From the IMG/VR virus record IMGVR_UViG_3300026123_000024, positions 1 to 27,020 of that record: a stretch of DNA of 27,020 nt. One strand, written 5' to 3'. The notes under the pieces are model-generated. The model was not told where the DNA came from. It ran no database searches and worked only from the letters and a program-made list of their open reading frames with translations. Source of the stretch: a virus (Duplodnaviria; Caudoviricetes). Every line of letters starts with the position of its first letter. Position 1 is the first letter of the stretch. A program made the translations under genes and the position numbers. This document shows positions 1 to 21,035 of the stretch, piece by piece.

Positions 1-31
1 ATAATGCATACATAGAAACTAGGAGATTGAT

Positions 32-214
32 ATGCAAGTTATTGAAGAAGTAGAGCACGAAGATGGTTCGGCTACCTACACAATTGATATGACTGAGGAA
101 GAGCGTAAGGCTGTAATGGAGCAAGGCCTATTATGGATGGTCGTTGCTGGTATTACTGAAGTTACCCCTACTGCAGTACTAGAAGCGTACATGCAGGAGA
201 AAGATAATGGATAA
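32..214 (+). CDS. Small acidic hypothetical phage protein (60 aa)
   Basis: AGGAGA RBS at ~21-26; 8-bp ATGGATAA overlap with the next gene. Confidence 0.75.
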   Translation: MQVIEEVEHEDGSATYTIDMTEEERKAVMEQGLLWMVVAGITEVTPTAVLEAYMQEKDNG

Positions 215-428
215 TAACCAAACTATAATTGACTGGAAAGCAATAGAGAGTACTGCTCCTGGCAGCGTTATTGAAATACCAGAATACTCAGAATGGGTTT
301 GTTACCTATTTGGAGGTAAACCGGATAACGGCATTATATGGCGACCACTAAAAGGAGAACATCCTAATTGGTTCTGGCGTAAGATGCAGTATTTTTGTTT
401 TGGTAATAAGTGGGTAAAAGATGAGTAA
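207..428 (+). CDS. Hypothetical Trp-rich phage protein (73 aa)
   Basis: CAGGAG RBS; 8-bp overlaps with both neighbours. Confidence 0.75.
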   Translation: MDNNQTIIDWKAIESTAPGSVIEIPEYSEWVCYLFGGKPDNGIIWRPLKGEHPNWFWRKMQYFCFGNKWVKDE

Positions 429-603
429 CTTAGTTAGATTTGTAAGAGTAGATGGTAATTTTAGAGATACTGTTTATATCAACCCTGATCGTGTTGCATA
501 CATAAAAGAGGGGAACTACCCCACCATATACCTGGATGCCGGTTACTTCATGAAGGTAGAAGGAAGTATAAAAGAAATAACAGATAAACTAGTAGGTAAC
601 TAA
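421..603 (+). CDS. Small protein resembling the FlbD/SwrD family (60 aa)
   Basis: Pattern VRFVRVDG..VYINPDRVAYIKE..TIYL..G..MKVEGSIKEITDKL resembles the FlbD-family consensus (IxLTRLNG..xLNPDxIExIE..TxIxL.NG..xVxESxEEV). Recognised by eye only. Confidence 0.5.
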   Translation: MSNLVRFVRVDGNFRDTVYINPDRVAYIKEGNYPTIYLDAGYFMKVEGSIKEITDKLVGN

Positions 604-604
604 G

Positions 605-991
605 ATGAGTGTATCGTACTCTACTAACTGGATGGGTCCTGTATCTATGCAATGGTACAAAGATCGTGGACTTACTGTTGGTATCTGCGAGAAACTAGGG
701 GAAGACAGAGTGTTCTTTCCGAAAGGTTACAAAGCAGGTGATTGGTGGGAATACGATCAGATTACTACTAATTACTGTGCTGGTCGTATTGACATCCGCG
801 ATAGTAGTAAAAACGGGTACGACGGATGGGATGAATACAGCCTAGCTCCTATGCATTGCGAAGATTGGAATGCGCTCAGGGACTTTCTCTGGGATTTGCA
901 TGGCGAGACTGTAATACCGTACGATTCTTTGATCATGTTGTTTGAGGCGTGGTACGGCAAGAAGATTAGATGGTGGATTGATGAAGAGTAA
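605..991 (+). CDS. Hypothetical phage protein, Trp/Asp-rich (128 aa)
   Basis: Starts 1 nt after the upstream stop; AGGT RBS; fits the tightly packed cluster. Confidence 0.75.
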   Translation: MSVSYSTNWMGPVSMQWYKDRGLTVGICEKLGEDRVFFPKGYKAGDWWEYDQITTNYCAGRIDIRDSSKNGYDGWDEYSLAPMHCEDWNALRDFLWDLHGETVIPYDSLIMLFEAWYGKKIRWWIDEE

Positions 992-1163
992 ACTATACTG
1001 GCAGCTCCGTAAGGCTATGACCTACAAGAGCATGAAGATGGGCTCTATTGTTACTAGCTTCCGTCCTCACAAGTATGCACCGATTAAAATGCGTACTTAC
1101 CCGTGTAACAAATGGGGGGCGGGGTACTGGAGAAACAAACCTAGGAGATCAGTACTTGACTAA
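981..1163 (+). CDS. Small, highly basic hypothetical protein (60 aa; start moved to ATG 981)
   Basis: GGTGG RBS-like sequence before ATG 981; overlaps the upstream stop; K/R-rich. Confidence 0.6.
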   Translation: MKSKLYWQLRKAMTYKSMKMGSIVTSFRPHKYAPIKMRTYPCNKWGAGYWRNKPRRSVLD

Positions 1164-1335
1164 GAGATATGAAGTTGCAGACGTCAGATTCAATAGTGGT
1201 ATGGGCGCTGTCTTATGTGATGTATGTGGCATTATCATTAAGACTGGGTTTGACCATGAAGACAAACAGCATGTGTGTCCAAGTTGCGCACTGGATGAGT
1301 TAGCAAGGCTGACACAGGAAATGGGATTAGAATGA
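1156..1335 (+). CDS. Small zinc-ribbon protein (59 aa; TTG start 1156)
   Basis: AGGAG at 1143-1147; TTGACTAA 8-bp overlap like its neighbours; CDVC...CPSC cysteine pairs. Confidence 0.7.
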   Translation: MTKRYEVADVRFNSGMGAVLCDVCGIIIKTGFDHEDKQHVCPSCALDELARLTQEMGLE

Positions 1336-1547
1336 TTGCACACTTACCCAGTCATTGGGTTGCCGGTATCTGTAAAGAGGAAGAGTGGGTTGGAGAGTTC
1401 TACGCAACTTCAGAAGAACTGCTAGTGTGGTGTGAGGATGAGCATCAAGACGAGCCAGTAGTGCAACTAGTGTTAGACTTATGCGAGTCACAACTAGTGT
1501 ACGAAGAATGGTGGAACAAAGTAAGGAGGAGACACAATGATGGCTAA
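1332..1547 (+). CDS. Small acidic hypothetical protein (71 aa)
   Basis: ATGA overlap with the upstream gene; E/D/W-rich. Confidence 0.65.
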   Translation: MIAHLPSHWVAGICKEEEWVGEFYATSEELLVWCEDEHQDEPVVQLVLDLCESQLVYEEWWNKVRRRHNDG

Positions 1548-2262
1548 TACGTTCTATACAATACACCCTTTGGCTAATATAGTAGCCATGGCAGGTGAAC
1601 GAGAGCAGGCAGCTCTTACACAAGACATTATGCAGAACGGGCAGACAGAGCCGGCTGTGTTGTGGAGAGGGCAGATTGTGGATGGGCGTTGCAGGCAGCT
1701 TGCGTGTGCTACGTTAGATATCCCCTTAGTTACCCGTACTCTTGAGGATAGTCTGACAGAAGATGAGGTAGCTGTTGTTGTTAAGAGCCTTAATACCCGC
1801 CGTAACTTGACAGATACCCAGAAGATAGCTAGTGCTTACCTAGACCAAAAGCGTACTGGCAAATGTAATAAACAGATTGCGCAAGAGTGGGCGGTTAGTG
1901 TGCGTACCTTGCAAAACTTTAAATACATTGCGCAGCACAGGGAAGAATTAGTAGAGCCGTTATTTAACGGAGACAGTGTTAAAGTTATTGATCCTGAACA
2001 AGGTTACGTGGTAACAACTAATAAGGTAAACACCTTAGCTAGGATTGTAAAACTAGGGGAAGAGAAAGGTAAGGTGGAGATTGTGAAGCCTACTGAGCTA
2101 GAGTCTGTTCAATATAATGTTGCTGGTGTAATTGCTACAGAAGCAGGTAGATCAGAGCACAGGGATCTTGTAAAAGCGTTTAAACACAGTAATAGCAAAG
2201 AACAAATGTTTAGTGCTGTGCTGGCTGAGCTCATGAATTACAAATATCAGGTAAAAGAATGA
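1537..2262 (+). CDS. ParB/Srx N-terminal-domain protein with a probable downstream HTH (241 aa)
   Basis: Strong AAGGAGG RBS; IHPLAN..L..DI..NGQ.EP..L..GQIVDGRCR..AC..L motif and SLNTRRNLTDTQK typical of phage ParB-like proteins; KQIAQEWAVSVRTL is HTH-like. Confidence 0.8.
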   Translation: MMANTFYTIHPLANIVAMAGEREQAALTQDIMQNGQTEPAVLWRGQIVDGRCRQLACATLDIPLVTRTLEDSLTEDEVAVVVKSLNTRRNLTDTQKIASAYLDQKRTGKCNKQIAQEWAVSVRTLQNFKYIAQHREELVEPLFNGDSVKVIDPEQGYVVTTNKVNTLARIVKLGEEKGKVEIVKPTELESVQYNVAGVIATEAGRSEHRDLVKAFKHSNSKEQMFSAVLAELMNYKYQVKE

Positions 2263-2474
2263 GAGATATAGACAATGCACGTGAAGCAATTATAAGTTGT
2301 AAAGATATATACCTGCAGTCCCCCAGTAAATTTGAAAGTGAGTATTCTTGGGGAATTTGTAATGGACTAGAACTGGCACTATCTTTGTTAGAAGACAGGC
2401 CAAGTTTTTTTGTAGACGAAAATAAAAAACATAGTCCTATTGATATAGAAAATTTTCCAGAGTATTTCCTTTAG
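2259..2474 (+). CDS. Hypothetical phage protein (71 aa)
   Basis: ATGA overlap; YSWGICNGLELALSLLEDR motif seen in small phage proteins. Confidence 0.7.
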   Translation: MRDIDNAREAIISCKDIYLQSPSKFESEYSWGICNGLELALSLLEDRPSFFVDENKKHSPIDIENFPEYFL

Positions 2475-2485
2475 TAATATCAGTA

Positions 2486-2494
2486 TGTTATACT
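2486..2494 (+). promoter_or_regulatory. Extended -10 element TGTTATACT
   Basis: TGn-TATACT in the first real intergenic gap; no good -35. Confidence 0.45.
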
Positions 2495-2529
2495 CGAAAG
2501 TGTTTTATTAACCTTTTGAGCCTAACGCA

Positions 2530-2676
2530 ATGGAAGAATTAGAAGAAAAACTGCGCAAACAACACAGCAATCTCACATATGAGGAGATTATGGATTTATT
2601 AGAGGAAGAATTGTACGATAGTTTTGATAGTCCGTACAAGCCTTTAAACTTCCACGATGAAGATGAAGATTTCTAA
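2530..2676 (+). CDS. Small, very acidic protein (48 aa; absent from the ORF track)
   Basis: Hand translation: MEELEEKLRKQHSNLTYEEIMDLLEEELYDSFDSPYKPLNFHDEDEDF*. It fills the gap after the putative promoter and overlaps the next gene; the RBS is weak. Confidence 0.6.
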   Translation: MEELEEKLRKQHSNLTYEEIMDLLEEELYDSFDSPYKPLNFHDEDEDF

Positions 2677-3058
2677 GGATGGTCTTAGTCTAGAAGAAGA
2701 TGTAGGTATACTATATATAGTTTATTTTGAACTAGAAGGTAAACAGCTAGTTAAAATAGGCGTTACTACTAGAGCCATAGAAGATCGAGTATCCGAAATA
2801 CTTGTTAGTATATTTAAGAAGTATAGGGAATTTCCATATTGCAGACCTAAAAGGTTTCGCAAGACGGGAAACGTGTATGAAAAAGAGGCGCAACTGCACC
2901 AGTATTTTAAGCAACATAACTATGAACTGAAAAATAAGTTTAGCGGTTCTACTGAGTTTTTTGATGTGCCATTAGAAGAAGTAGTTGAGGTATACGAACA
3001 ACTGCTGAAAGGAAAGGCAATAGATGAGAGTAGACAAGAGCAAGATTCGGACTCCTGA
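2657..3058 (+). CDS. T5orf172/MUG113-like (GIY-YIG superfamily) protein
   Basis: GILYIV...VKIGVT..IEDRV..., E.QLHQYF, and FSGSTEFF motifs characteristic of the family. Confidence 0.8.
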   Translation: MKMKISKDGLSLEEDVGILYIVYFELEGKQLVKIGVTTRAIEDRVSEILVSIFKKYREFPYCRPKRFRKTGNVYEKEAQLHQYFKQHNYELKNKFSGSTEFFDVPLEEVVEVYEQLLKGKAIDESRQEQDSDS

Positions 3059-3233
3059 TGAAGAGTATGAATACCTGTGGAATGAGTGGCAATCCGGTGG
3101 TGATTTCTTTGCTTGGGACGTACACCCCAATGTAGTGCGCGCTTTAGAGATAAAAAAGAAAAGAATTTGGAAAAAGATTAAAATACTGGTTGACTCAGCA
3201 GAGTTTCAGGAATATAATCCATGGTACAAATAG
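3024..3233 (+). CDS. Hypothetical protein (69 aa); its 3' end contains a promoter
   Basis: AAAGG RBS; overlaps the upstream gene. Confidence 0.65.
   Translation: MRVDKSKIRTPDEEYEYLWNEWQSGGDFFAWDVHPNVVRALEIKKKRIWKKIKILVDSAEFQEYNPWYK
3190..3218 (+). promoter_or_regulatory. sigma70-type promoter TTGACT-N17-TATAAT
   Basis: -35 at 3190-3195, -10 at 3213-3218, exact 17-bp spacer. Confidence 0.8.
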
Positions 3234-3346
3234 AGTTACTCCTTTGTTTGTTTGATAAGATAAAGTTCATTGTGTTGCTCCCTCCTCAATAATAATAACT
3301 ACTCTCTCCTTGTGTTACCGGCCCCTTGCTTAGGGGCCATTTTTTT
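3225..3346 (+). ncRNA. Candidate ~120-nt small RNA with three anti-Shine-Dalgarno motifs
   Basis: Bounded by a near-consensus promoter and an intrinsic terminator; contains CTCCTTT (3239-3245), CTCCCTCCTC (3278-3287) and CTCTCTCCTT (3302-3311); no credible + strand ORF. Confidence 0.6.
3320..3346 (+). terminator. Rho-independent terminator
   Basis: GGCCCCT-tgctt-AGGGGCC 7-bp stem followed by A and T7. Confidence 0.85.
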
Positions 3347-3354
3347 GGTATACT
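3326..3354 (+). promoter_or_regulatory. Promoter for the terminase genes, overlapping the terminator
   Basis: TTGCTT (3326-3331)-N17-TATACT (3349-3354) with the extended TG at 3346-3347. Confidence 0.6.
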
Positions 3355-3395
3355 CGCAAAATAACCTACATGACTTTACAGATAAAAGGTATACC

Positions 3396-4118
3396 ATGGG
3401 ACAATTGTTAACAATTGATGATGTAAAACAGGCAATGCCTAGAAAAAAGAACTACATCACTCAAGAAGCTGTTGATATTATCAACCAATCTATGAACGAT
3501 CCTGAATTTCAGGGTGAATCGTTAATACAAACTGCTGCAACCTACGAAGCAGTACTACGTGGCGCACGAGCATCGGTACCAGAATACCTAAATGCCATTA
3601 GATTTTGCGCATATATGACCACAAATGACTCAAATTACACAGAAGCTTACAAAAAAGTGTTTGCCGACCGTGATTTTGTCAAAGAACGTGTCAATTTACC
3701 GACAGATCACCCAAAATACGGCGAATTAACTAGTGCAGCGTCAAGATATCGACGCACAAAACTAGTAACAGACATTCTTACGGCCAGTCAAGTACCTCTT
3801 GACCTGATTTTTACAGGCCATAGGTACAAAGCTATCGGTGTTTTGGCGGATATTATGGAATCTGGTAAGTATGACCGTGATCGTATTAATGCTGCTAAAG
3901 AATTATTGGCTGCTACCAAAGGTCCAGATAATATGAAGATTGAATTGGACGTTGGTGTAAGCGAATCTAGCGCCGTACAGCAGCTTAACGATCAGTTGGC
4001 AGAGATAGCTGGGCGCTCTCTTAAACACCTTCAGGCAGGCGCTACGAGCCTTAACGAGCTTGGCGCGTTAAAGGTTAAAGACGATGATATCATTGAAGGA
4101 GAGTACACTAATGGCTAA
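3396..4118 (+). CDS. N4 gp69-like protein, probable terminase small subunit (240 aa; start moved to ATG 3396)
   Basis: AAAGGT RBS; directly upstream of and overlapping TerL; motifs (ITQEAVDIIN, EYLNAIRF..Y, EAYKKVF, KLVTDIL..SQVP, YKAI.VLADIM, RINAAKELL) match my recollection of N4-like gp69. Confidence 0.75.
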   Translation: MGQLLTIDDVKQAMPRKKNYITQEAVDIINQSMNDPEFQGESLIQTAATYEAVLRGARASVPEYLNAIRFCAYMTTNDSNYTEAYKKVFADRDFVKERVNLPTDHPKYGELTSAASRYRRTKLVTDILTASQVPLDLIFTGHRYKAIGVLADIMESGKYDRDRINAAKELLAATKGPDNMKIELDVGVSESSAVQQLNDQLAEIAGRSLKHLQAGATSLNELGALKVKDDDIIEGEYTNG

Positions 4119-5676
4119 TACTTATGTTCCTACCGAAGAAGCAGTAAAGTTTATTGCTTTTATTCGTGCAGCTAACGTAGAAGATAATGCTAACGCCGAG
4201 ATACATTATAGACTAGCAGACAAATACTTTGGTACAGATAAACAAGTATTAATAGAAGCTTTTCGTGGTAGCGCAAAATCTACTATGATGGAGTGGCTTG
4301 TATTATATATTGCAGCTATGGGCAAGCTACATAACTTTGGGAAAGTACAGTTTATAGCGTTTATCGGGGATAGTATGGAAAATGGTACAAAAAACTTTTT
4401 CCGTAACGTAGCTGGTAAGATTGATAGGTCAGATCTGCTTAAACAACTAATTACTATTAAACGTAAAACAGATTCTGAAATGGAACTAGTCAACGCAGAT
4501 GGTGTTGAATTAAACATGAAAGGGTATGGTGCAAGCACCAACATTCGTGGTGTTCGTTACAAAGGGTCTCGTCCTGATATTGTAATTCTTGATGATATTA
4601 CAACTAACGATGCTATTAACTCTGAAACTATACAGAATACTATCAATGACAACTTCTACAAATCCGTTATCCCTGCTTTACACCCCACTAGATATAAGAT
4701 CTTCTTTATTGGTACCCCAATTTCAGAACGAGATATTATTCATCAGCTTAGTGATAACCCTAAATGGGTAGTACATAAATTTCCTATTGCAGAAAAATTT
4801 CCTTGTGATGAGCAAGAATTTATAGGCAACTGGGTTGACCGTTTTCCGTATGAAGCAGTACAAGAAAAGTACGAGATGTACAAAGCTGCAGGTAAAGCTC
4901 AAGACTTTTTCCAAGAATTTATGTTGGAAATTACGGACTTAACTACACTTCTTGTAGAAGAAGAAGATATACAATGGTTTGATCCTTCTATTATTAGAAA
5001 AAATAAAGAAAATTATAACTTTTATATTTCTACAGACTTTGCTACTAGTACTAAAAAGTCTGCTGACTTTTCTACTATTGGTGTATGGGCAGTATCTAGC
5101 AATAACGATTGGCTGTTAGTAGATGGTCAATGTCTTCGTCAAACAATGCAGGAAAATATTGATGATTTATTCAGATATGTTAAGAAATGGGCACCTCTTA
5201 GTGTCGGTATCGAGAGTTCTGGGCAACAGGGCGGTTTTATTTCTATTATGCAAGAAATGATGATGAAACGTAATATGTGGTTTACGTTTGCAAAAAAACC
5301 AGGTAGTAAAGACGTAGGAATACGCCCAGTAAAAGATAAAGTCCACAGGTTTGTTACAGGTGTACAACCAAAATTTAAACAAAACAAAATATGGTTACCT
5401 AAACCAGAGTTAGCAGCGTTATCTTCCCCAAGACTTGTAACATTAGTAGAAGAAATGGTACATGAGCTTAGTAGATTTACCTTAGCAGGTGGTATTAAAT
5501 CTTTAGCCCACGATGATGCTATTGACTTACTTAACCAGCTATCAGAAATGGATATCTACACACCTTCTTCGTCGTCTGATCTAACAAGTAGCATCATAAC
5601 AGAAGATGGCCTAGTTTGGGAGTCTATATGGGACGGTGAGGAAGAAGATTACCATATAAATAGCACAGTGTTCTAA
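4111..5676 (+). CDS. terL: Terminase large subunit (N4 gp68-like; start ATG 4111)
   Basis: Walker A AFRGSAKST, Walker B IVILDD, FIGTP coupling motif, nuclease residues ISTDFAT and HDDAID; GAAGGAG RBS. Confidence 0.95.
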   Translation: MANTYVPTEEAVKFIAFIRAANVEDNANAEIHYRLADKYFGTDKQVLIEAFRGSAKSTMMEWLVLYIAAMGKLHNFGKVQFIAFIGDSMENGTKNFFRNVAGKIDRSDLLKQLITIKRKTDSEMELVNADGVELNMKGYGASTNIRGVRYKGSRPDIVILDDITTNDAINSETIQNTINDNFYKSVIPALHPTRYKIFFIGTPISERDIIHQLSDNPKWVVHKFPIAEKFPCDEQEFIGNWVDRFPYEAVQEKYEMYKAAGKAQDFFQEFMLEITDLTTLLVEEEDIQWFDPSIIRKNKENYNFYISTDFATSTKKSADFSTIGVWAVSSNNDWLLVDGQCLRQTMQENIDDLFRYVKKWAPLSVGIESSGQQGGFISIMQEMMMKRNMWFTFAKKPGSKDVGIRPVKDKVHRFVTGVQPKFKQNKIWLPKPELAALSSPRLVTLVEEMVHELSRFTLAGGIKSLAHDDAIDLLNQLSEMDIYTPSSSSDLTSSIITEDGLVWESIWDGEEEDYHINSTVF

Positions 5677-5683
5677 GTATTTA

Positions 5684-5692
5684 TGGTATAAT
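5684..5692 (+). promoter_or_regulatory. Extended -10 TGGTATAAT
   Basis: Perfect TGn-TATAAT just after the terL stop. Confidence 0.5.
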
Positions 5693-5729
5693 GGGTGCTG
5701 CCTAAAGTATTGAAATAAAGTAAACATTA

Positions 5730-5758
5730 TTGACTTTGGGCAGTAGGCATTATATAAT
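5730..5758 (+). promoter_or_regulatory. sigma70-type promoter TTGACT-N17-TATAAT for the adaptor/tail genes
   Basis: -35 at 5730-5735, -10 at 5753-5758; the same hexamers as the 3190 promoter. Confidence 0.75.
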
Positions 5759-5834
5759 TACGCCAATATACCTGCATTAAATAGTAGCACCTTTTGCCAG
5801 ACTACTAATCTTAGCTAACTTACAGGAACTAATA

Positions 5835-6452
5835 ATGAAAGTACAAGATGTGGTAGACGCTGCGCGTTACAGTGAGTTGGCATCTGTCGCTACCAAAGAT
5901 AATACTGATGCAATTTTATCATTCTTAAACTTAGGAATGTTAGAGTTATACAAACGTTTCCCTCTAAACACTCAAGAACATATTGTAGAACTTGTTGAAG
6001 GTACTACTTTATACGACTTACCTGAAAACTTTATGTACGCTTTAAGCGCATATGGAGAACCTTTAGAAGCTTCTATGGGTGAGGTAGTTGATGTACCTAT
6101 TAACGATGAAGACGAACCTTATAGTATATTTTTCCCTAACCATAAACAAGTGCAAATTCCTCTTGTAGCAAATGGGGCTTACATTTCTATAATTTACATT
6201 GCTAAACCCGCATCATACACAGCTGCAGATTTGCAAGAAGAACTTGATTTACCAGAAACTTTAATTGATTGTTTACTACACTACGTAGGGTATAAAGCAC
6301 ACCTAGGTATTAGAGGTGATGGGCAATCTGAAAATAATGCACATTTTGCACGTTTTGAGCGCAGTTGTCAAAAAGCTAGGGAGCTAGGTGTAGCACACCC
6401 AATCGACTCTTGGCGTATGATTGACAGACTAAATGACAGAGGATTTGCCTAA
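5835..6452 (+). CDS. N4 gp67-like virion head-tail adaptor protein (205 aa)
   Basis: Position after terL; ILSFLNLGMLELYKRFPL, VELVEGTTLYDL, QEELDLPETLIDCLLHYVGY and terminal RLNDRGFA match my recollection of gp67. Confidence 0.8.
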   Translation: MKVQDVVDAARYSELASVATKDNTDAILSFLNLGMLELYKRFPLNTQEHIVELVEGTTLYDLPENFMYALSAYGEPLEASMGEVVDVPINDEDEPYSIFFPNHKQVQIPLVANGAYISIIYIAKPASYTAADLQEELDLPETLIDCLLHYVGYKAHLGIRGDGQSENNAHFARFERSCQKARELGVAHPIDSWRMIDRLNDRGFA

Positions 6453-9400
6453 TGAGTCGTCGCGTAAGTAGTTTAGATAAATCTACGGTTGGCATACAAC
6501 GTGATATTGAAAGTCAATACGATAATGTAAAAACAGTAGCTATTAATATTGAAGACGTAGTAAGAGTTTCTACTAGCGTTGATAATATTAATAGAGTAGA
6601 AGAAAGCATTACAAATGTAGACAGAGTATTTTTATCTGTAGACAACGTAGATACTACTGCCGAGCATATTAATAACATTGATATTACTGCTGATAGCATT
6701 GTAAACGTAAATGCTGTAGCTGCAAATATTGCGGATATTAACATAGTAGCTGCAGATATTGATAAAGTTATTACTACTGCTAATGACTTAAATGAAGCTA
6801 TTTCTGAAATAGAAACTGTAGCCAATGATCTTAATGAAACTACTTCTGAAATTGAAACAGTAGCATTTTCTATTAATAACGTTGATGCAGTTGGTCAAAG
6901 TATTGTTGATGTAAACACAGTATCTGACAATATTTTAGATGTTAATAGAGTAGCAACGTCAGCTAATGAGCTTGATCGCGTATTTGTTTCTATTGACAAC
7001 CTTGATCGTGTATATACTTCAATAGATGAAGTAGATCGTCTTTATACTTCTATTCTTAAAATTGACAGAACATACGATAGTATTGACAACCTAGATCGTG
7101 TGTTTACTTCTATCGATAATATAGACAGAGTAGACTTATCTATTGATAACGTCGACAGAGTACACGCTAGTATTAGCAATGTCGATCGTGTATTTACTTC
7201 TATAGACAATCTTGACCGTGTGTACAGTTCAATCGGTAATATAGACCGTGTACATACAAGCATAGCAAACATTGATCGTGTTGAAGATAGTGCGGACAAT
7301 TTAGATCGAGTTTTTACATCGATTGACAACTTAGATCGTGTATTTACTAGTATTGGTAATGTAGATCGAGTAGATCAATCTATTTTAGAAGTAGATCGTG
7401 TATTCGCCTCTATTGATAATCTTGATAGAGTATTCACAAGTATTGATAACTTGGATCGAGTTGATACTAGTATCGATAATCTTGATCGTGTATTTACAAG
7501 TATTAGTGAACTAGATCGAGTTTACGCAAGCATTGAAAATGTAGATAGGCTAAATGTAGTAGATACTTTAGGCTCTACTGTATCAACTGCTGACTCTATT
7601 GATCGACTAAACACTGGTTTTACTGCAGATAACATTGATCGCCTTAATACTGGTGACACTGCAAACAATATTGACCGTGTTGAAGACAGCGCTGATAACA
7701 TTGACCGAGTACACACGTCTATTGCTCAAGTTGACCGAGTATACACTTCTATTGACAATGTAGACCGTGTTCATACCTCTATTAATAATGTGGATAGAGT
7801 ATTTACCTCAATTGACAATGTAGATCGCGTTGACCAGTCTATTGATAAACTAGATCGTGTTTATACTAGTATTGATGAGATTGACCGGGTATTTACGTCT
7901 ATCGATAACCTAGATATTGTTGATGCTAGTATTGTAAACGTAGATACTGTAGCTAGTAATATTCTTGATGTTAATCGTGTAGCAGATTCTGCTGACAACC
8001 TTGATAGAGTTCACGACTCAATCACTAATGTAGACCGAGTGTTTACATCTATTGATAACGTTGATCGAGTATCTACATCTGCTAATAAAGTCGATCGTGT
8101 ATATACCTCTATTCTAAAACTAGATAGGGTATACGATAGTGTAGATAACTTAGACAGAGTATTTACTTCTGTTGCAGAACTTGACCGTGTTTATGCGAGT
8201 ATTGATAACTTAGATAGAGTTCACACTAGCATAGGTAACCTGGACCGTGTAGATCAGTCTATCGACAATCTAGACAGGGTACATACAAGTATTGCTGAAG
8301 TAGATAGAGTATACACAAGTATTGCTAACGTCGACCGCTTAAATGTGGTAGACGCAGATGGGTCATTAGTAGCTACCGTAGATTCTATTGACCGTTTGAA
8401 TACAGGTCTAACAGCGGACAACATGGACCGCTTAAATACGGGCGCTACGGCTAATAATATTGACAGGGTATCAGCATCAGCAGATAAGCTTGATCGCGTT
8501 CACACGTCAATTCTGGAGCTTGACAGGGTATATACTTCGATAGACAACCTGGATAGGGTTGATACTTCTATTGATAACTTAGACCGAGTATACACATCTA
8601 TTGATAATATTGACCGAGTTGATCAGTCAATTGACAACATTGATAGATTGCATACATCAATTCTTAATCTAGATCGTATCCATACTTCTATTACAAACTT
8701 AGATAGAGTATACAGCTCTATTACTCAAGTAGACCGTGTATATGATAGTATCGCTAATGTAGATACAGTTAACCTGCATATTGCTAATGTAGATATTGTT
8801 GCAAATAACATTACTGATGTTAATACAGTAGCGGCTGATATTGCTAAGGTAATTAAAGTAGCAAATGATCTTAACGAAGCAATTTCTGAGGTAGAAGTTG
8901 TAGCTAATGACCTTAGCGAAACAACATCCGAAATTGAGACAGTAGCGAATAGTATTGTTAATGTTGATCTTGTTGGTACAGATATTACTAATGTTAATAC
9001 TGTTGCTACTAACATTGCTGACGTAAATCGTGTTGCATTATCTGCAGACAACATTGATAGAGTACACACCAGTATTACAAACGTAGATCGTTTGAATACA
9101 GGAGCTACTGCTGATAACATTGATAGAGTATCTACTTCAGCTAACAACTTAGACCGTGTATACACCTCTATTACAGAGTTGGATCGCGTTTATACATCTA
9201 TCGATAAACTAGATAGAGTGCATACTAGCATTGCTGAGTTGGATAGAGTTCATACTTCTATTGCAAAACTGGATAGAGTATACGACTCAATTGCCGCTGT
9301 TGATACAGTCAACACACACATTGTAGAACTAGATACCGTTGCAGCTGATATTACTAATGTAAACACGGTAGCTGCAAGTATTGCAAATGTAAACACCGCT

Positions 9401-11377
9401 GCTACTAACATTACCAATGTAAACGTAGTAGCTGGTATTAACACCGAGGTTACTACCCTTGCGGGCATTTCTGCGGAGTTAGAATCTTTATTTGCAGATA
9501 AGGCAACATTGGATAGTTTGTTTGCGGATAAAGCTACGCTAGACAGCTTATTTGCGGATAAGATTACCCTAGATTCTTTGTACGCAGATAAAGCCACGCT
9601 TGACTCAATTTTTGCAGACAAAGCAACACTTGATTCTATATTTGCAGATAAAGCTACATTAGATCGCCTACATACTTCTATCGCTAACATTGATAGAGTA
9701 TTTACATCGATTGCAAACCTAGATAGGGTTTACACCTCTATTAATAATCTTGATAGAGTGTTTACTAGTATTAGTAACCTGGACCGGGTATTTACCAGTA
9801 TTGCTAATGTCGATACAGTAGCCGGTATTGAAACTCAAGTAGTTACTGTTGCAGGTATTGAAACTGAAGTAGTATCGCTATATACCGATAAGGCTACTTT
9901 AGATAGCTTATACGCAGACAAGATCACACTGGATAGTCTGTATGCTGATAAAGTTACACTTGATTCTTTATATGCGGATAAGATTACTTTAGACTCTTTA
10001 TTTGCTGATAAAGTAACTTTAGACAGCCTTTACACTGACAAAGCTACCCTTGATAGTTTATACGCAGATAAAACAACACTAGACAGTTTATACGCAGACA
10101 AGATTACTCTTGACTCGCTTTATTCTGACAAAGTTACTCTTGATCGTTTGTACACTTCTATTGGTAACATCGATAGAGTACACACCTCAGTAACTAACCT
10201 AGACAGAGTCTACACGTCAATTGACAACCTAGATACTGTATACAGCTCTATTGCTAATGTTGATACTGTTGCGATTGACATTGCAAATGTTAATACGACT
10301 GCAGTAAACATCCTAAATATTAATACTGTTGCAGCTGATTTAAGTGCGACTGTTTCTGATATTAATACTGTTGCCGCCAATATTACAAATGTTAATACGG
10401 TTAGTACTGATATTGCTAATGTAAATATTGTAGCAAGTGGTATAGCTAATGTAGATATTGTAGCAACAGCAAGTACAAACGTTGCTACAGTTGCATCTGA
10501 CATAACTAACGTAAATACAACAGCATCTAATATAACAAGCGTTAATACTACCGCAAGTAACATTACAAGTGTTAACACTGTTGCTAGTAATATTGCTGAT
10601 ATTAGTACTGTAGTTAGTAACTTAGCAGAAATTTTAACTGCTGATGATAATGCTGTTGTTGCTACGGCAAAAGCTGCTGAAGCTTACGCCAGTGCCACAG
10701 CTGCTGCATCTTCTGAAACTAACGCAGCTACTAGTGAGTTAAACGCAGCTAATAGCGAAACTGCTGCTGCTAATTCAGCCGCAAGCGCTGAAACTAGTTT
10801 GCTTACCTTCCAAGGACAATACGTATCTCAAGCAACAGAACCTACTAACCCAGATGTTGGTGATTTATGGTTTGATACTACTACTGCTGTAATGAAAGTT
10901 TACGATATAGATGGGTGGAAATCGGCCTCTAGTTCTATAGAAGGAATTAAAACTGACTTCCAGTACGTAGCAGTTGAAGGACAAACAACATTTTCTGGTA
11001 GTGGTTTAGTTATTGACGTAGCGGAACTAGTCAACGTATACCTAAACGGTGTGCGTTTACCAAGTAGTGATTACATTGCTGATGCTACTACAAACACTAT
11101 TGTTCTTGCCGAGCCTGTAGTTGCGGGGGATGAATTAGAAGTAGAAGTATTTGGTAACTTTGCTGGTCAAAGTGGCGCTAATGTAGCTATTACCGGTGGT
11201 ATAATTACTGGACTAATTAACTTTAGTTCTGATATAATTACTTTTGGTGATTGGACAATTACTGAAAGCGGCAATTCAATTTATTTCGCAAACAATGGTA
11301 CTAACTTGATGAAACTTGCTGCAGATGGAACACTACAAGTAGCTGGTGACTTAGAAACAAACGCAACAATTATTTAA
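6452..11377 (+). CDS. Giant decad-repeat fibre/appendage protein (1641 aa)
   Basis: About 1400 aa of 10-residue repeats (DRVYTSIDNL, NVNTVAxNIx, DSLYADKxTL). The C-terminus has tail-fibre motifs (GDLWFDT, YVAVEGQTTF, VYLNGVRL, NVAITGG). It occupies the N4 gp66 appendage position. Confidence 0.8.
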   Translation: MSRRVSSLDKSTVGIQRDIESQYDNVKTVAINIEDVVRVSTSVDNINRVEESITNVDRVFLSVDNVDTTAEHINNIDITADSIVNVNAVAANIADINIVAADIDKVITTANDLNEAISEIETVANDLNETTSEIETVAFSINNVDAVGQSIVDVNTVSDNILDVNRVATSANELDRVFVSIDNLDRVYTSIDEVDRLYTSILKIDRTYDSIDNLDRVFTSIDNIDRVDLSIDNVDRVHASISNVDRVFTSIDNLDRVYSSIGNIDRVHTSIANIDRVEDSADNLDRVFTSIDNLDRVFTSIGNVDRVDQSILEVDRVFASIDNLDRVFTSIDNLDRVDTSIDNLDRVFTSISELDRVYASIENVDRLNVVDTLGSTVSTADSIDRLNTGFTADNIDRLNTGDTANNIDRVEDSADNIDRVHTSIAQVDRVYTSIDNVDRVHTSINNVDRVFTSIDNVDRVDQSIDKLDRVYTSIDEIDRVFTSIDNLDIVDASIVNVDTVASNILDVNRVADSADNLDRVHDSITNVDRVFTSIDNVDRVSTSANKVDRVYTSILKLDRVYDSVDNLDRVFTSVAELDRVYASIDNLDRVHTSIGNLDRVDQSIDNLDRVHTSIAEVDRVYTSIANVDRLNVVDADGSLVATVDSIDRLNTGLTADNMDRLNTGATANNIDRVSASADKLDRVHTSILELDRVYTSIDNLDRVDTSIDNLDRVYTSIDNIDRVDQSIDNIDRLHTSILNLDRIHTSITNLDRVYSSITQVDRVYDSIANVDTVNLHIANVDIVANNITDVNTVAADIAKVIKVANDLNEAISEVEVVANDLSETTSEIETVANSIVNVDLVGTDITNVNTVATNIADVNRVALSADNIDRVHTSITNVDRLNTGATADNIDRVSTSANNLDRVYTSITELDRVYTSIDKLDRVHTSIAELDRVHTSIAKLDRVYDSIAAVDTVNTHIVELDTVAADITNVNTVAASIANVNTAATNITNVNVVAGINTEVTTLAGISAELESLFADKATLDSLFADKATLDSLFADKITLDSLYADKATLDSIFADKATLDSIFADKATLDRLHTSIANIDRVFTSIANLDRVYTSINNLDRVFTSISNLDRVFTSIANVDTVAGIETQVVTVAGIETEVVSLYTDKATLDSLYADKITLDSLYADKVTLDSLYADKITLDSLFADKVTLDSLYTDKATLDSLYADKTTLDSLYADKITLDSLYSDKVTLDRLYTSIGNIDRVHTSVTNLDRVYTSIDNLDTVYSSIANVDTVAIDIANVNTTAVNILNINTVAADLSATVSDINTVAANITNVNTVSTDIANVNIVASGIANVDIVATASTNVATVASDITNVNTTASNITSVNTTASNITSVNTVASNIADISTVVSNLAEILTADDNAVVATAKAAEAYASATAAASSETNAATSELNAANSETAAANSAASAETSLLTFQGQYVSQATEPTNPDVGDLWFDTTTAVMKVYDIDGWKSASSSIEGIKTDFQYVAVEGQTTFSGSGLVIDVAELVNVYLNGVRLPSSDYIADATTNTIVLAEPVVAGDELEVEVFGNFAGQSGANVAITGGIITGLINFSSDIITFGDWTITESGNSIYFANNGTNLMKLAADGTLQVAGDLETNATII
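6500..10640 (+). repeat. Degenerate 30-bp-period coding tandem repeat
   Basis: Recurring GAY-MGN-GTN...ATT-GAY-AAY units with diversified synonymous codons. Confidence 0.9.
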
Positions 11378-16295: not shown

Positions 16296-16538
16296 ATGTC
16301 ACAGAAAATTATTTACAAAACACCAGAAGGCGGTGTCGCAGTTATTCATCCTTCAGCAGAAGCTCTAGCATCATACTCAATTAACCAGATTGCAGCTAAG
16401 GATGTACCTCCGGGCCTAGCGTATAAGATTGTAAATGCAGATGTTATTCCATCTGATCGTACATTCCGTGATGCGTGGGAAGTAGACGAAACTACTTTAA
16501 CTGATGGTGTTGGCAGTCCGTCAAACACTTTTAATTAA
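16296..16538 (+). CDS. Putative tail fibre assembly protein (80 aa)
   Basis: IIYK..GGVAVIHP..IAAKDVP.G..YKIV...IPSDRTFRDAW, a conserved fibre-adjacent family; AAGGA RBS. Confidence 0.65.
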   Translation: MSQKIIYKTPEGGVAVIHPSAEALASYSINQIAAKDVPPGLAYKIVNADVIPSDRTFRDAWEVDETTLTDGVGSPSNTFN

Positions 16539-17510: not shown

Positions 17511-20500
17511 ATGTCATTAAATAATTCTAGACGATTAAGGCTTCAAAATGCTATTGCTGCATGGAAGCAAAAAATTGCTGACGAACGAGCAGCAGCTGAA
17601 GCTGAAGCCGCACGGATAGCAGAACAAGAACGTTTAGCAGCTGAAGCAGCGGCAGCGATTGACGCAGAAACGTATACTAACCAAGCTATTGCAGCTTTAG
17701 CATCTACAGCACCAGAAGCCCTAGATACATTAGAAGAGTTAGCAGCAGCTTTGGGAGATGACCCTAATTTTGCTAGTTCTGTCACTACGTCCCTAGGTAC
17801 TAAAGTAGACAAAATAAACGTTACAGGAGGCTCTGTAGGCTCTTCTACGGGCATTCCTGTAATTACCTATAATAGTCAAGGGCAAATAACTTCAGCGTCT
17901 GAAACAGGCATTACAGTAGGTAACGGGTCAATGACCGTTAACACTGGATCAGGCCTGGTAGGCGGTGCGCAACTAGGTACGGCTAACCAACAAACAAATA
18001 CCTCTGTTACTATCAGCCATGCAGACACTAGTTCTGTAAGCAATGTTAATAATAGTGGAAATACTTTTATACAAGACCTTACTTTCGACAGTTTTGGTCA
18101 CGTAACTGGGGCTACTTCTGGAAGCGTAACAGTAGGCGATGGTGCAATGACTGTTACTGCAGGTAGCGGTTTGTCGGGCGGTGGTCAACTAGGTACTGCA
18201 AACCAATCTGGTGCATCCAGCATTACTTTAAACCACGCTGATACTAGTTCAGTATCTAACATTGATACTTCTGGTAAAACAGTAATTGACGCTCTTACAT
18301 TTGATACTTACGGTCACGTTACTGGCGCAACCTCACGTAATCTTGACTTTTACACTACAAGTGAAGCTGATGGTCGTTATGTAAATGTAACCGGCGATAC
18401 AATGACTGGAGCATTAACAGCTTCTGGTGGTATCAACGGGCTAACATTAGCTAATGGTATTACTGGTACAAACTACAACATTACTGGCGTTAACCAACTT
18501 GAGATAGCAGATCCAGGTGAAGGTATTGTCTGGAAATCCGGATCTAGTGGTGACATGCTTCTCGCCATAGTTGATGACACATCAGATAGTAGGTTAAACC
18601 TTTCTGGTACTGGTGCATCTATGAGCATCAATAACCAACGTGTATTTGCAGACGATTACCACCCTAATGCTGACAAATGGACTACTGCACGTACTCTAAG
18701 CCTTACTGGAGATGTATCGGGTAGCGTAAGCTGGGATGGTTCTGGCAACGCATCAATGACAACTACTGTTGCTAACGACAGTCATAGTCATAGTAATTAT
18801 TTGTTAAATACTACTGACTCTGAACAAACAGGTGATTTCGGAACTATATACTGGAATCAAGGTTCTGCTAGAGTAAATTCAGACCCTAGGACAAATGAAC
18901 CAGGCTATGATTCTGATTTAACTAATATTCACTGGTGGTCTACTACAGCAGCAGGGGCTAATTATGGTCGTGTAGGTCATGCTCTGTATAATGGTTCTGC
19001 ATATCAATACCTACATACTAAAGCTAATCAGAGCAACCTCTACATTAATAACAATGTAGTCTGGAATGCAGGTAATGACGGATCGGGTTCTGGGCTAGAC
19101 GCAGATCTACTTGACGGACAACACGCTAGTTCTTTTGCTGCTGCAAACCACTCACATAGTTATTTACCTTTATCAGGTGGTACTATTACAGGTAACGTAA
19201 CGCTTACTGGTGCAGATTCTGAAAACGCTTTAACGCTTACTGGTACTATGCCAACAATAGCGTTAATTGATAATGTTGATGATAACTTCTTCATTCATGT
19301 AAATAGCAACAATTTTTATATTTTGAATGATAGAGATGGAAACGGTTCTTACAATAGCTGGGAAGCACCTTATGCTTTACAGTTAGAAGCTGATACTAAT
19401 ATAGGTTATTTATTTGGCGATAGAATCTTTGACGAAGGTTACCACCCTAACGCTGATAAATGGACTACTGCGCGTAGCCTTACATTGACAGGTGATGTAA
19501 CAGGTAGTGTGTCCTGGGATGGTAGTGCTAACGCTTCTATCACAGCCACTGTTGTAAATGACAGCCACAACCACAACCATTCTGATGGCAATTTTACAGT
19601 CAATGGGGATTTGTACGGTAAGGCCGTAAATGGTGCCTACTCTAGCATTTATAGAATGGGCGGTATTTACTTTACATGGGATTCAGATAGCTACGGAACT
19701 AATATTAACCACTCTATCCGTTCTACTTACGGAGATACGTATGGTGATGATATTACTATAAACTCTTATGGTAATGTCCGTATCAACATTGATAGTAATA
19801 ATAATGGTGCTGATAGATTCGAAATAGGTCAAGGTACTACTGGTACTGGTAATGTCATCTTTACTACGGATGAAGCGGGTAATACTACTTCTACTGGTAG
19901 TTTACGTTCACCTATCTTCTATGACAGTGCTAATACAGCATACTACTGGAACCCTAACGACAGTTCTGCTCACAAGTTCCAGACGCCCAGTGGATATATC
20001 CACATTGGCCCGATGAATACGAGCCACTGTCATCTTCAGACTGACAGAAGCAACTTCTACTTCAACAAAGAGCTACGTGTTGATACGGGCGTAATTGGTT
20101 CATACAATGAGAACTTAATACTACGAAGAGCAGCTAACTCCGCTGACCAGATTACTGTAGCTTCAGGTTATTCAGTAGCTACAGGAAGTATGCGAGCACC
20201 ACTGTTCTACGATAGTAACAATACAGCTTATTACGCAAATCCAGCCAGTACATCTTACTTCAACGACTTCCGTTGTGACATCATGTATGACAAGGATAAT
20301 ACAGCTTACTATGTACGTCCCGGTTCTACGTCTATTCTAAACGATGCTCGTGCTAACATTTGGTACAGCCGCAGTAACACAGGGTATTACAGCGATCCTG
20401 AAAGTACATCACGGTTAAATGCAGTAGATTTTAATAGTGGTACTCTCAGAGGTCCGTTAGTAGTTCCTACTGGAAACCGTGATGACGGTGTATTTGGTAC

Positions 20501-21035
20501 ATACGACTCATATAAAACCCAGCATATCTGGTCAATGGGTACTTCTTATCGAAATGCTGCAGATGGCTCTACTTTTGGTAACTTGTACGGTTTAGCGTAC
20601 AAACACACCAACAATGCTACTGGCGGTAGTATGGGCGGAAGTCACCAAATGGTATGGTGTCAAAATGGCAGCGCTAAATGTTCTTTAGGCTCTAGTATAT
20701 GGACAAGCGGTAACGTAACTGCTTACTCAGATATACGAGTTAAAACTAATCTTGAAATCATTCCTGATGCGCTTGAAAAAGTTAAGCAGCTCAACGGTTA
20801 TACCTTTGATCGTACTGACGTTAAGTATGACGAGGATGGTGAGCCTTTAGTACCTATTCGTCAGACAGGCGTAGTCGCTCAGGAAGTCCTGAAAGTTCTC
20901 CCAGAAGCTGTTACCGGCGACGAAGAAAACCACTACTCCGTGGCATACGGAAACATGGTTGGTCTTTTAATCGAGGCGGTAAAAGAGCTGGACGCAAAAG
21001 TGAAAGACTTAGAGGCAAAACTCAATGGCAATTGA
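17511..21035 (+). CDS. Mosaic long tail fibre protein 2 with a C-terminal peptidase S74 intramolecular chaperone (1174 aa)
   Basis: YSDIRVKTNL..ALEKVKQLNGYTF..GVVAQEV..LPEAV..VAYGNMVGLLIEAVKEL S74 signature; modules shared with fibre 1; FYDSxNTAYY repeats. Confidence 0.92.
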   Translation: MSLNNSRRLRLQNAIAAWKQKIADERAAAEAEAARIAEQERLAAEAAAAIDAETYTNQAIAALASTAPEALDTLEELAAALGDDPNFASSVTTSLGTKVDKINVTGGSVGSSTGIPVITYNSQGQITSASETGITVGNGSMTVNTGSGLVGGAQLGTANQQTNTSVTISHADTSSVSNVNNSGNTFIQDLTFDSFGHVTGATSGSVTVGDGAMTVTAGSGLSGGGQLGTANQSGASSITLNHADTSSVSNIDTSGKTVIDALTFDTYGHVTGATSRNLDFYTTSEADGRYVNVTGDTMTGALTASGGINGLTLANGITGTNYNITGVNQLEIADPGEGIVWKSGSSGDMLLAIVDDTSDSRLNLSGTGASMSINNQRVFADDYHPNADKWTTARTLSLTGDVSGSVSWDGSGNASMTTTVANDSHSHSNYLLNTTDSEQTGDFGTIYWNQGSARVNSDPRTNEPGYDSDLTNIHWWSTTAAGANYGRVGHALYNGSAYQYLHTKANQSNLYINNNVVWNAGNDGSGSGLDADLLDGQHASSFAAANHSHSYLPLSGGTITGNVTLTGADSENALTLTGTMPTIALIDNVDDNFFIHVNSNNFYILNDRDGNGSYNSWEAPYALQLEADTNIGYLFGDRIFDEGYHPNADKWTTARSLTLTGDVTGSVSWDGSANASITATVVNDSHNHNHSDGNFTVNGDLYGKAVNGAYSSIYRMGGIYFTWDSDSYGTNINHSIRSTYGDTYGDDITINSYGNVRINIDSNNNGADRFEIGQGTTGTGNVIFTTDEAGNTTSTGSLRSPIFYDSANTAYYWNPNDSSAHKFQTPSGYIHIGPMNTSHCHLQTDRSNFYFNKELRVDTGVIGSYNENLILRRAANSADQITVASGYSVATGSMRAPLFYDSNNTAYYANPASTSYFNDFRCDIMYDKDNTAYYVRPGSTSILNDARANIWYSRSNTGYYSDPESTSRLNAVDFNSGTLRGPLVVPTGNRDDGVFGTYDSYKTQHIWSMGTSYRNAADGSTFGNLYGLAYKHTNNATGGSMGGSHQMVWCQNGSAKCSLGSSIWTSGNVTAYSDIRVKTNLEIIPDALEKVKQLNGYTFDRTDVKYDEDGEPLVPIRQTGVVAQEVLKVLPEAVTGDEENHYSVAYGNMVGLLIEAVKELDAKVKDLEAKLNGN

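Follow-up and report, generated by a model that had tools for sequence, protein, structure and literature searches.

Genomic setting and architecture of the locus

The window (the whole 27,020-nucleotide stretch of DNA that was analyzed) is a 27-kb fragment of a phage akin to Alteromonas phage vB_AmaP_AD45-P1. The RNA unit described here is preceded, on the same strand, by a run of small open reading frames (ORFs), a ParB-like gene, a T5orf172-domain gene (2657-3058), and a 69-aa ORF (Table 1), and it is followed by a gene for an N4 gp69-like protein and then by TerL, a gp67-like gene, tail fibers, endolysin, and portal. It thus lies directly before the packaging genes, where a sequence-only reading of the same DNA had placed it. 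The gp69-like gene was proposed to encode a small terminase in the AD45 paper (PMC3821669, available text). Many relatives carry a 67- to 86-aa ORF between gp69 and TerL (L079:3071-3280; G001 20420-20632; L002:2840-3043; L008:4044-4301) that is missing from the window and from AD45-P1. The window also encodes a 1641-aa tail-fiber-like protein (6452-11377) that is made up mostly of short internal repeats and has 10 stretches matching phrog_22284.

Within the last codons of the 69-aa ORF lies a sigma70-type promoter with the hexamers and the 17-nt spacer reported by the sequence-only reading, matching the consensus at 11 of 12 positions. Promoter-like sites are not enriched as a class (21 in positions 1 to 8000 vs. 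26.8 in shuffles), so the promoter call in the window rests on conservation. A second TTGACT-17-TATAAT promoter occurs at 5730-5758, before the gp67-like gene, and those hexamers also precede the gp67-like gene in two related genomes, G001 (22263) and G002 (86775).

The RNA predicted to start at the first promoter has a pyrimidine-rich body (61% vs. 47% for the window) with CTCCT cores at 3239, 3282, and 3306, exactly where they had been reported. At least three such cores arose in 5 of 2,000 dinucleotide shuffles of the 95-nt body, and the triple cluster is unique in the window when both strands are scanned. The hairpin and T7 run that had been described after the body were likewise recovered; the fold z-score of -2.7 includes the terminator stem. 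Because no other plus-strand terminator was found between 1 and 3320, the RNA and the ParB-like gene likely belong to one operon with one 3' end, and the RNA region and the ParB-like gene are probably cotranscribed.

The earlier reading had overlooked a separate gp69 promoter that overlaps the terminator. It is found in an identical register in 13 of the 14 loci described below, with AD45-P1 deviating. Since gp69 has its own promoter with a -35 box in the terminator loop, the promoter at 3190 is not needed for the packaging genes. Directly 3' of the gp69 promoter is a tandem TAC-N7-TAC motif (3367-3379), which is present in 23 of 24 loci whose gp69 is at least 75% identical, 15 of 25 at 63-75%, and 10 of 35 below that; among shorter (35-nt) upstream windows of other genes the background is 7 of 416. 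It is possibly an operator or a packaging-related site.

Table 1. Positions of the predicted RNA unit, its predicted target, and neighboring genes in the window
Feature	Position	Strand	Details
Predicted target site	1523..1545	+	Shine-Dalgarno (SD) sequence and start codon of the ParB-like gene
ParB-like target gene	1537..2262	+	241 aa; ParB_N (GRxR motif) and HTH; PHROG 4715/1033
69-aa ORF	3024..3233	+	Function unassigned; phrog_23425; hosts the RNA promoter
Sigma70-type promoter of the small RNA	3190..3218	+	-35 TTGACT at 3190-3195, -10 TATAAT at 3213-3218; last codons of the ORF at 3024-3233
Predicted small RNA	3225..3346	+	About 122 nt; putative start 7 nt past the -10 box
Predicted 5' hairpin	3226..3251	+	First CUCCU (3239-3243) partly within the loop; seed 1 at about 3234-3255
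Seed 2	3264..3286	+	Anti-SD plus anti-AUG; pairs most strongly with the ParB-like start, at -23.1 kcal/mol
Four AAN repeats	3288..3299	+	Possible Hfq distal-face site
Seed 3	3300..3317	+	Terminator-adjacent CUCCU; best fit to the L077/L079 ParB allele
Intrinsic terminator	3320..3346	+	7-bp hairpin 3320-3338, then A, then T7 up to 3346; likely common to the small RNA and the upstream operon
Separate gp69 promoter	3326..3354	+	TTGCTT-17-TATACT, extended TG; -35 at 3326 in the terminator loop, -10 at 3349
N4 gp69-like gene	3396..4118	+	Proposed small terminase; 81% identity to the AD45-P1 "N4 gp69-like" protein

Conservation of the RNA unit

Searches with gp69 yielded 83 distinct loci with sufficient upstream DNA, and a hairpin followed by a T run was present in 25. 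A spacing rule placed a promoter upstream in 13 of these 25, with L082 slightly below the cut. The end of the host ORF could be aligned for 22 of the 24 loci submitted. L093 and L042 were excluded because the ORF end was not found, L080 and L032 because the contig lacks the promoter region, L078 because it is the window's own contig, and L090 because it is nearly identical to L104. A pattern scan returned seven loci, of which five were already in the set and two, on unrelated phage contigs (L142 and L143), were dropped. GTDB genomes supplied one further locus, and a homolog search with the ORF at 3024 supplied no additional contig.

Aligning the region upstream of gp69 homologs, a check proposed by the sequence-only reading, recovered the promoter and terminator in 14 of 22 loci, with the promoter at one codon register and a 17-nt spacer. 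The TTG of the -35 box and A2 and T6 of the -10 box are invariant in these 14 loci, and the residues encoded across the promoter vary (V/L/I/F then D/A; Y/H then N/G/S/R/T). In all 14 promoter-positive loci the terminator is at least as strong as -8.5 kcal/mol, and the eight loci that lack the promoter at this register have either no terminator (five) or a weak hairpin of -8.3 to -8.9 (three), counts that are to be read with a cut-off chosen after the values were seen and with loci that are mutually related. In the close relatives L033 and L083, both promoter and terminator are lost. Across loci, 90.8% of terminator stem cells are paired, and six cells have changed on both sides in a compensatory manner. 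Judged by these alignments, promoter, CU-rich body, and terminator are a unit that is kept or lost together.

The RNA bodies of the relatives are 65-164 nt long and can hardly be aligned. As had been anticipated for a functional motif, CUCCU is kept in relatives, with 19 copies in 12 of the 14 bodies (mean 2.6 and maximum 7 in 300 shuffles), and the copy nearest the terminator precedes the stem by 2-15 nt in 12 of 14 loci. CUCCU is missing from L082 and AD45-P1. A 5' hairpin folds in all six relatives tried, each time from a different sequence. At the level of sequence, this is the conservation pattern of an RNA gene selected for an exposed anti-SD. We conclude that the locus very probably holds a real, conserved phage small-RNA gene, and the part of the earlier reading that proposed a discrete small-RNA gene with anti-SD seeds is supported.

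An opposite view of the same motifs is that CUCCU marks where ribosomes bind on small minus-strand genes or on what is left of them; another is that the unit as a whole arose by chance alongside an intergenic terminator. An SD followed by ATG can indeed be read on the minus strand in 8 of 14 loci with a loose pattern, and the window has a 30-aa ORF there (3270-3178); an anti-start-site seed read backwards, however, looks like an SD plus ATG. The minus-strand ORFs, which the sequence-only reading had named as a way for its proposal to fail, are absent or 2-36 aa long (0-36 aa overall) and share no sequence, the nearest relatives stop after two or three codons, the 30-aa ORF has no PHROG match, and the plus strand is the one that bears the conserved promoter and T tail. 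We regard minus-strand genes or a chance origin as very improbable. A cis-antisense RNA or type I toxin-antitoxin system was rejected on the same finding, that no conserved opposite-strand ORF lies under the RNA.

Predicted pairing with the ParB-like start region

The ParB-like gene, 1.7 kb upstream of the RNA on the same strand, was proposed as the target from the window alone, by its match to seed 2, before the start sites of relatives were examined. Each phage's RNA was then scored against every start region called on the contig it came from, using the hybrid energy of 26-nt windows plus the RNA opening energy; the energy model was home-made and took no account of target accessibility, and gene starts came from a crude caller. 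The method was changed after a first look, because unconstrained duplex folding was noisy (ParB-like start ranked 2/39, 1/108, and 2/155, and outside the best eight for AD45-P1) and was replaced by the 26-nt-window scoring. The genomes scored were G001 (68% complete), G002 (92% complete), and AD45-P1 (bases 1-100,000 of 103,910). L082, L085, L086, L089, and L131 were excluded from the ranking since their ParB-like start lies outside the contig.

With its own RNA, the ParB-like start was top-ranked in six of eight testable phages: 1/38 in the window, 1/108 in G001, 1/154 in G002, 1/153 in AD45-P1, and, on the shorter contigs, 1/22 in L006 and 1/9 in L079, with 3/14 in L002 and 11/13 in L008. 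The letters that pair differ from phage to phage, and the targets scored span two ParB-like subfamilies that are only ~20-28% identical to each other. AD45-P1 has lost CUCCU, yet its RNA still ranks its own ParB-like start first, through a G-U-rich duplex; the start scored there, a caller-chosen GTG, lies upstream of the annotated ATG and by eye is in register with the start of L010. On the basis of its SD and its register with homologs, the ParB-like gene AD45P1_00140 (L001:3155; KF005317.1, 33919) probably starts at this GTG, which precedes the annotated ATG by 72 nt.

Among 29 gene families found in at least three phages, the ParB-like family stood out with a combined z of -5.7, against -2.2 for the runner-up. 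Within the window, seeds 1, 2, and 3 ranked the ParB-like start 1, 1, and 4 of 39, so that the multiple seeds of the earlier proposal are present but converge on one site rather than on many. Seed 1, which is not found in L077/L079, scored -19.3 with the window's ParB allele vs. about -12.5 with the L077/L079 allele, and seed 3 scored -20.4 with the L077/L079 allele vs. -17.2 with that of the window. Two or three seeds are predicted to be redundant for the ParB-like site in the window.

Specificity of the predicted target

A plain 16S anti-SD ranked the ParB-like start 1/39 in the window, 41/108 in G001, 12/155 in G002, 4/153 in AD45-P1, and 2/22 in L006, the first of these because the ParB-like gene has the strongest SD of the window. 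SD strength thus explains the rank in the window and much of that in AD45-P1 and L006, but not those in G001 or G002. When only starts with an SD at least as strong were compared, the phage's own RNA ranked the ParB-like start 1/43, 1/12, 1/4, 1/2, and 1/4. Exchanging RNAs between phages gave a mixed picture: 3 of 13 foreign RNAs also put the ParB-like start at the top in the window, and as many did so in G001 and in AD45-P1; in G002 and L006 the phage's own RNA alone did so, the 13 others giving ranks of 7-110 and 2-15, respectively. The own-phage diagonal of the resulting 5 × 5 z matrix was the lowest among 120 permutations. Shuffles with the anti-SD core held fixed reached the observed energy in 12, 40, 21, 82, 14, 25, 18, and 96 of 200 cases in the eight phages; no phage was significant singly, and Fisher's combined p was 0.016 for all eight and 0.036 without the window. 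Taken as sequence statistics, these values suggest a modest pairing specificity beyond the SD core.

There are three exceptions. L082 lacks CUCCU. L084 has the RNA, and its ParB-like start lacks an SD and ranks 11/13. L104 has the unit on a contig without a ParB-like gene. The top match of the L084 RNA is a DUF559-type 190-aa gene (L008:851-1423) inserted directly before the ParB-like gene, which may represent a target switch.

These exceptions bear on a second reading, in which the RNA is real but represses phage and/or host mRNAs broadly through its anti-SD, and the ParB-like gene is one of its many targets, with a strong SD. Such a repressor would fit the CUCCU core as the sole conserved letter string, the frequency with which foreign RNAs rank the ParB-like start first, the other top matches in L084 and L104 (in L104 including opposite-strand genes), and the fit of L077/L079 seed 2 to opposite-strand small genes of G001. 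It would not predict that AD45-P1 without CUCCU still ranks its own ParB-like start first or that seed 1 tracks the window's ParB allele, and no second conserved phage target emerged from the 29 families. We therefore consider broad repression unlikely; the pairing data speak for a single main target more than for general silencing of early or host mRNAs. Silencing of early phage mRNAs across the board, as the sequence-only reading had it, is not supported: the ParB-like gene is the sole consistent target among the 29 families, and it belongs to the operon of the RNA itself rather than to the arm on the opposite strand.

Because RNA and target share a strand and likely also an mRNA, with no plus-strand terminator found in 1-3320 and the terminator directly before the packaging genes, the element might instead work in cis, as a 3' untranslated region of the operon mRNA that folds back on the ParB-like start or as an attenuated gp69 leader. 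The lambda pR'/6S arrangement is a precedent for an attenuated leader. A cis element would leave unexplained why a dedicated promoter is co-retained with the terminator, gp69 has a promoter of its own past the terminator, and the gp69 start is unpaired (z -1.5 to +1.6 in 14 loci); we find this reading distinctly improbable. Sequestration of the gp69 start by the RNA was ruled out on the same unpaired starts. The gene after gp69 was inconsistent as a second target (z -2.4 to +0.9 in 12 loci), and captured exact antisense copies of other genes were rejected, the longest matches elsewhere being 10-12 nt and none at start sites.

On this evidence we consider a specific ParB-like target for the RNA probable. 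Our preferred reading, to which we assign a probability of roughly 0.6, is that the locus is a small-RNA gene whose product would pair with the start codon and ribosome-binding site of the ParB-like gene, a member of the same operon, and would repress translation of that gene.

Comparison with known RNAs

Rfam covariance models gave no match at the gathering threshold in the window or in 13 related loci, so the Rfam check suggested earlier assigns no family; below the threshold there were seven weak matches only (E 0.88-6.2). A literature search, with subscription papers mostly outside its reach, found no publication on a phage RNA of this locus. In the main text of the AD45 paper (PMC3821669), the words "ParB" and "terminator" are absent.

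The closest parallels in gene organization are DapZ, MicX, and MicL, which, as far as the available text of PMC9438474 describes them, have a conserved promoter shortly before the stop codon of an upstream gene, a terminator common with the mRNA, and pairing in trans, the last being a prediction for the RNA here. The present RNA agrees with DapZ in its ORF-embedded promoter, conserved in 14 loci, and its terminator common with the mRNA. Those RNAs are chromosomal and act on other operons, whereas the RNA here is in a lytic phage with a predicted own-operon target, and Rfam shows no sequence similarity between them. OppZ and CarZ of Vibrio cholerae are likewise operon 3'-end RNAs that pair with their own transcript to block translation; in the accessible part of PMC7398697, however, they are cut from the mRNA by RNase E, giving feedback. 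The RNA here has its own promoter and so could switch the operon off independently of operon output; this own, conserved promoter means that it is not a member of the OppZ type.

In its overall layout the RNA presumably resembles ChiX, a class II Hfq small RNA. ChiX likewise has four AAN motifs and the U tail of an intrinsic terminator, and Hfq prefers (AAN)n (PMC7987339, in excerpt). There is no sequence match to ChiX, and the AAN tract is weakly conserved here, with at least three triplets in 6 of 14 loci; Hfq binding is putative. ChiX competes for Hfq through its four AAN motifs (PMC7987339), and VpdS is also an Hfq competitor (PMC12197685, both in the text available); the four repeats and U tail of the window could likewise make the RNA mainly an Hfq competitor, or else a sponge, acting on proteins or host RNAs. 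Having at least three AAN triplets in so few loci, and leaving the phage-specific match to ParB-like starts unexplained, this is the explanation we would hold least probable of all.

C4 of phages P1 and P7 is an antisense RNA that acts by pairing. As predicted for the RNA here, C4 is encoded together with the regulatory gene that it represses, in one operon and on one strand. Unlike the RNA here, C4 is located upstream, within the immunity operon of a temperate phage, and its conserved fold has an Rfam model (PMC8198154, available portion), to which nothing here matches. The target of C4 is icd/ant, whereas the predicted target here is a ParB-fold gene. Since Rfam gives no match, the RNA is not C4. 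Other phage-encoded base-pairing regulators include RalA, from a temperate phage or prophage, and sar and OOP are antisense RNAs of opposite-strand origin. VpdS, PreS, DicF, 24B_1, sar, and OOP share with the RNA here the role of phage-encoded base-pairing regulators of phage or host mRNAs and differ in coming from temperate phages or prophages, and the accessible text of PMC12197685 names no phage small RNA with a ParB-like target. Candidate noncoding RNAs of virulent phages are being catalogued, and their functions largely await study (PMC10914365 and PMC12197685, text available in part).

The ParB-like protein and the proposed role of the RNA

In the alignment of ParB-like proteins, G, D, G, R, and R are invariant in 29 of 29 rows, as is the GRxR patch, and the window's protein scores 0.97 to ParB_N clusters in the atlas. 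A Pfam search with the protein found nothing at the cut-off. Its structure model has a pLDDT of 85, and the top Foldseek matches are Noc, Spo0J, and KorB (E 4e-4). By this modeled fold, the protein may be a CTP-dependent DNA clamp or repressor. The two ParB-like subfamilies fill one slot in different phages of the AD45-P1-related family.

We propose that host RNA polymerase makes a primary RNA of ~120 nt, as for DapZ, and that Hfq may help through the U tail and the AAN tract. The RNA would pair over the SD and AUG of the ParB-like gene, block 30S entry, and so repress translation, and pairing may be polar on coupled downstream genes, including the T5orf172-type nuclease gene. Because its promoter shares hexamers with that of the gp67-like gene, the RNA may rise with structural transcription and might then, speculatively, lower the level of a KorB/Noc-like DNA clamp at the onset of packaging; as a caveat on timing, a consensus sigma70 promoter could equally fire early. 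A bolder version, which we hold to be improbable, is a developmental switch in which a structural-phase small RNA shuts off a KorB/Noc-like CTP clamp that silences host-polymerase promoters of the packaging and structural arm, replacing the missing N4 single-stranded DNA-binding protein (SSB) activator; the RNA would gain seeds that track target alleles, and its reach would thus extend to the sister alleles of relatives that co-infect or recombine.

Phages of the AD45 type are reported to have no N4-type SSB and no RNAPII (PMC3821669, available text), and strong sigma70 promoters precede their structural genes. A ParB-fold regulator controlled by a small RNA would be a concrete candidate for timing these promoters and an entry point to what orphan phage ParB proteins do. 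The comparative sequences point to a named phage gene as the target, with matched changes in seed and target. Since one member of this family of marine phages, AD45-P1, is in culture with its host, Alteromonas macleodii, the model can be tested directly.

The promoter of the ParB operon is visible at L016:6610 and L005:4829, and the window starts inside its -10 box. A TTGCGCAA palindrome was seen at this promoter (L016:6600-6625) and near another promoter in G001 and G002, where it lies at 16314 and 64506 and at 62812 and 90954, respectively. There is no intergenic copy in the window and no exact copy in the spacers of AD45-P1. Near-matches to TTGCGCAA are intergenic in 7 of 17 cases in G001 and 7 of 15 in G002, though ~90% of the DNA is coding, and the palindrome is, as a lead only, a candidate site for the ParB-like protein.
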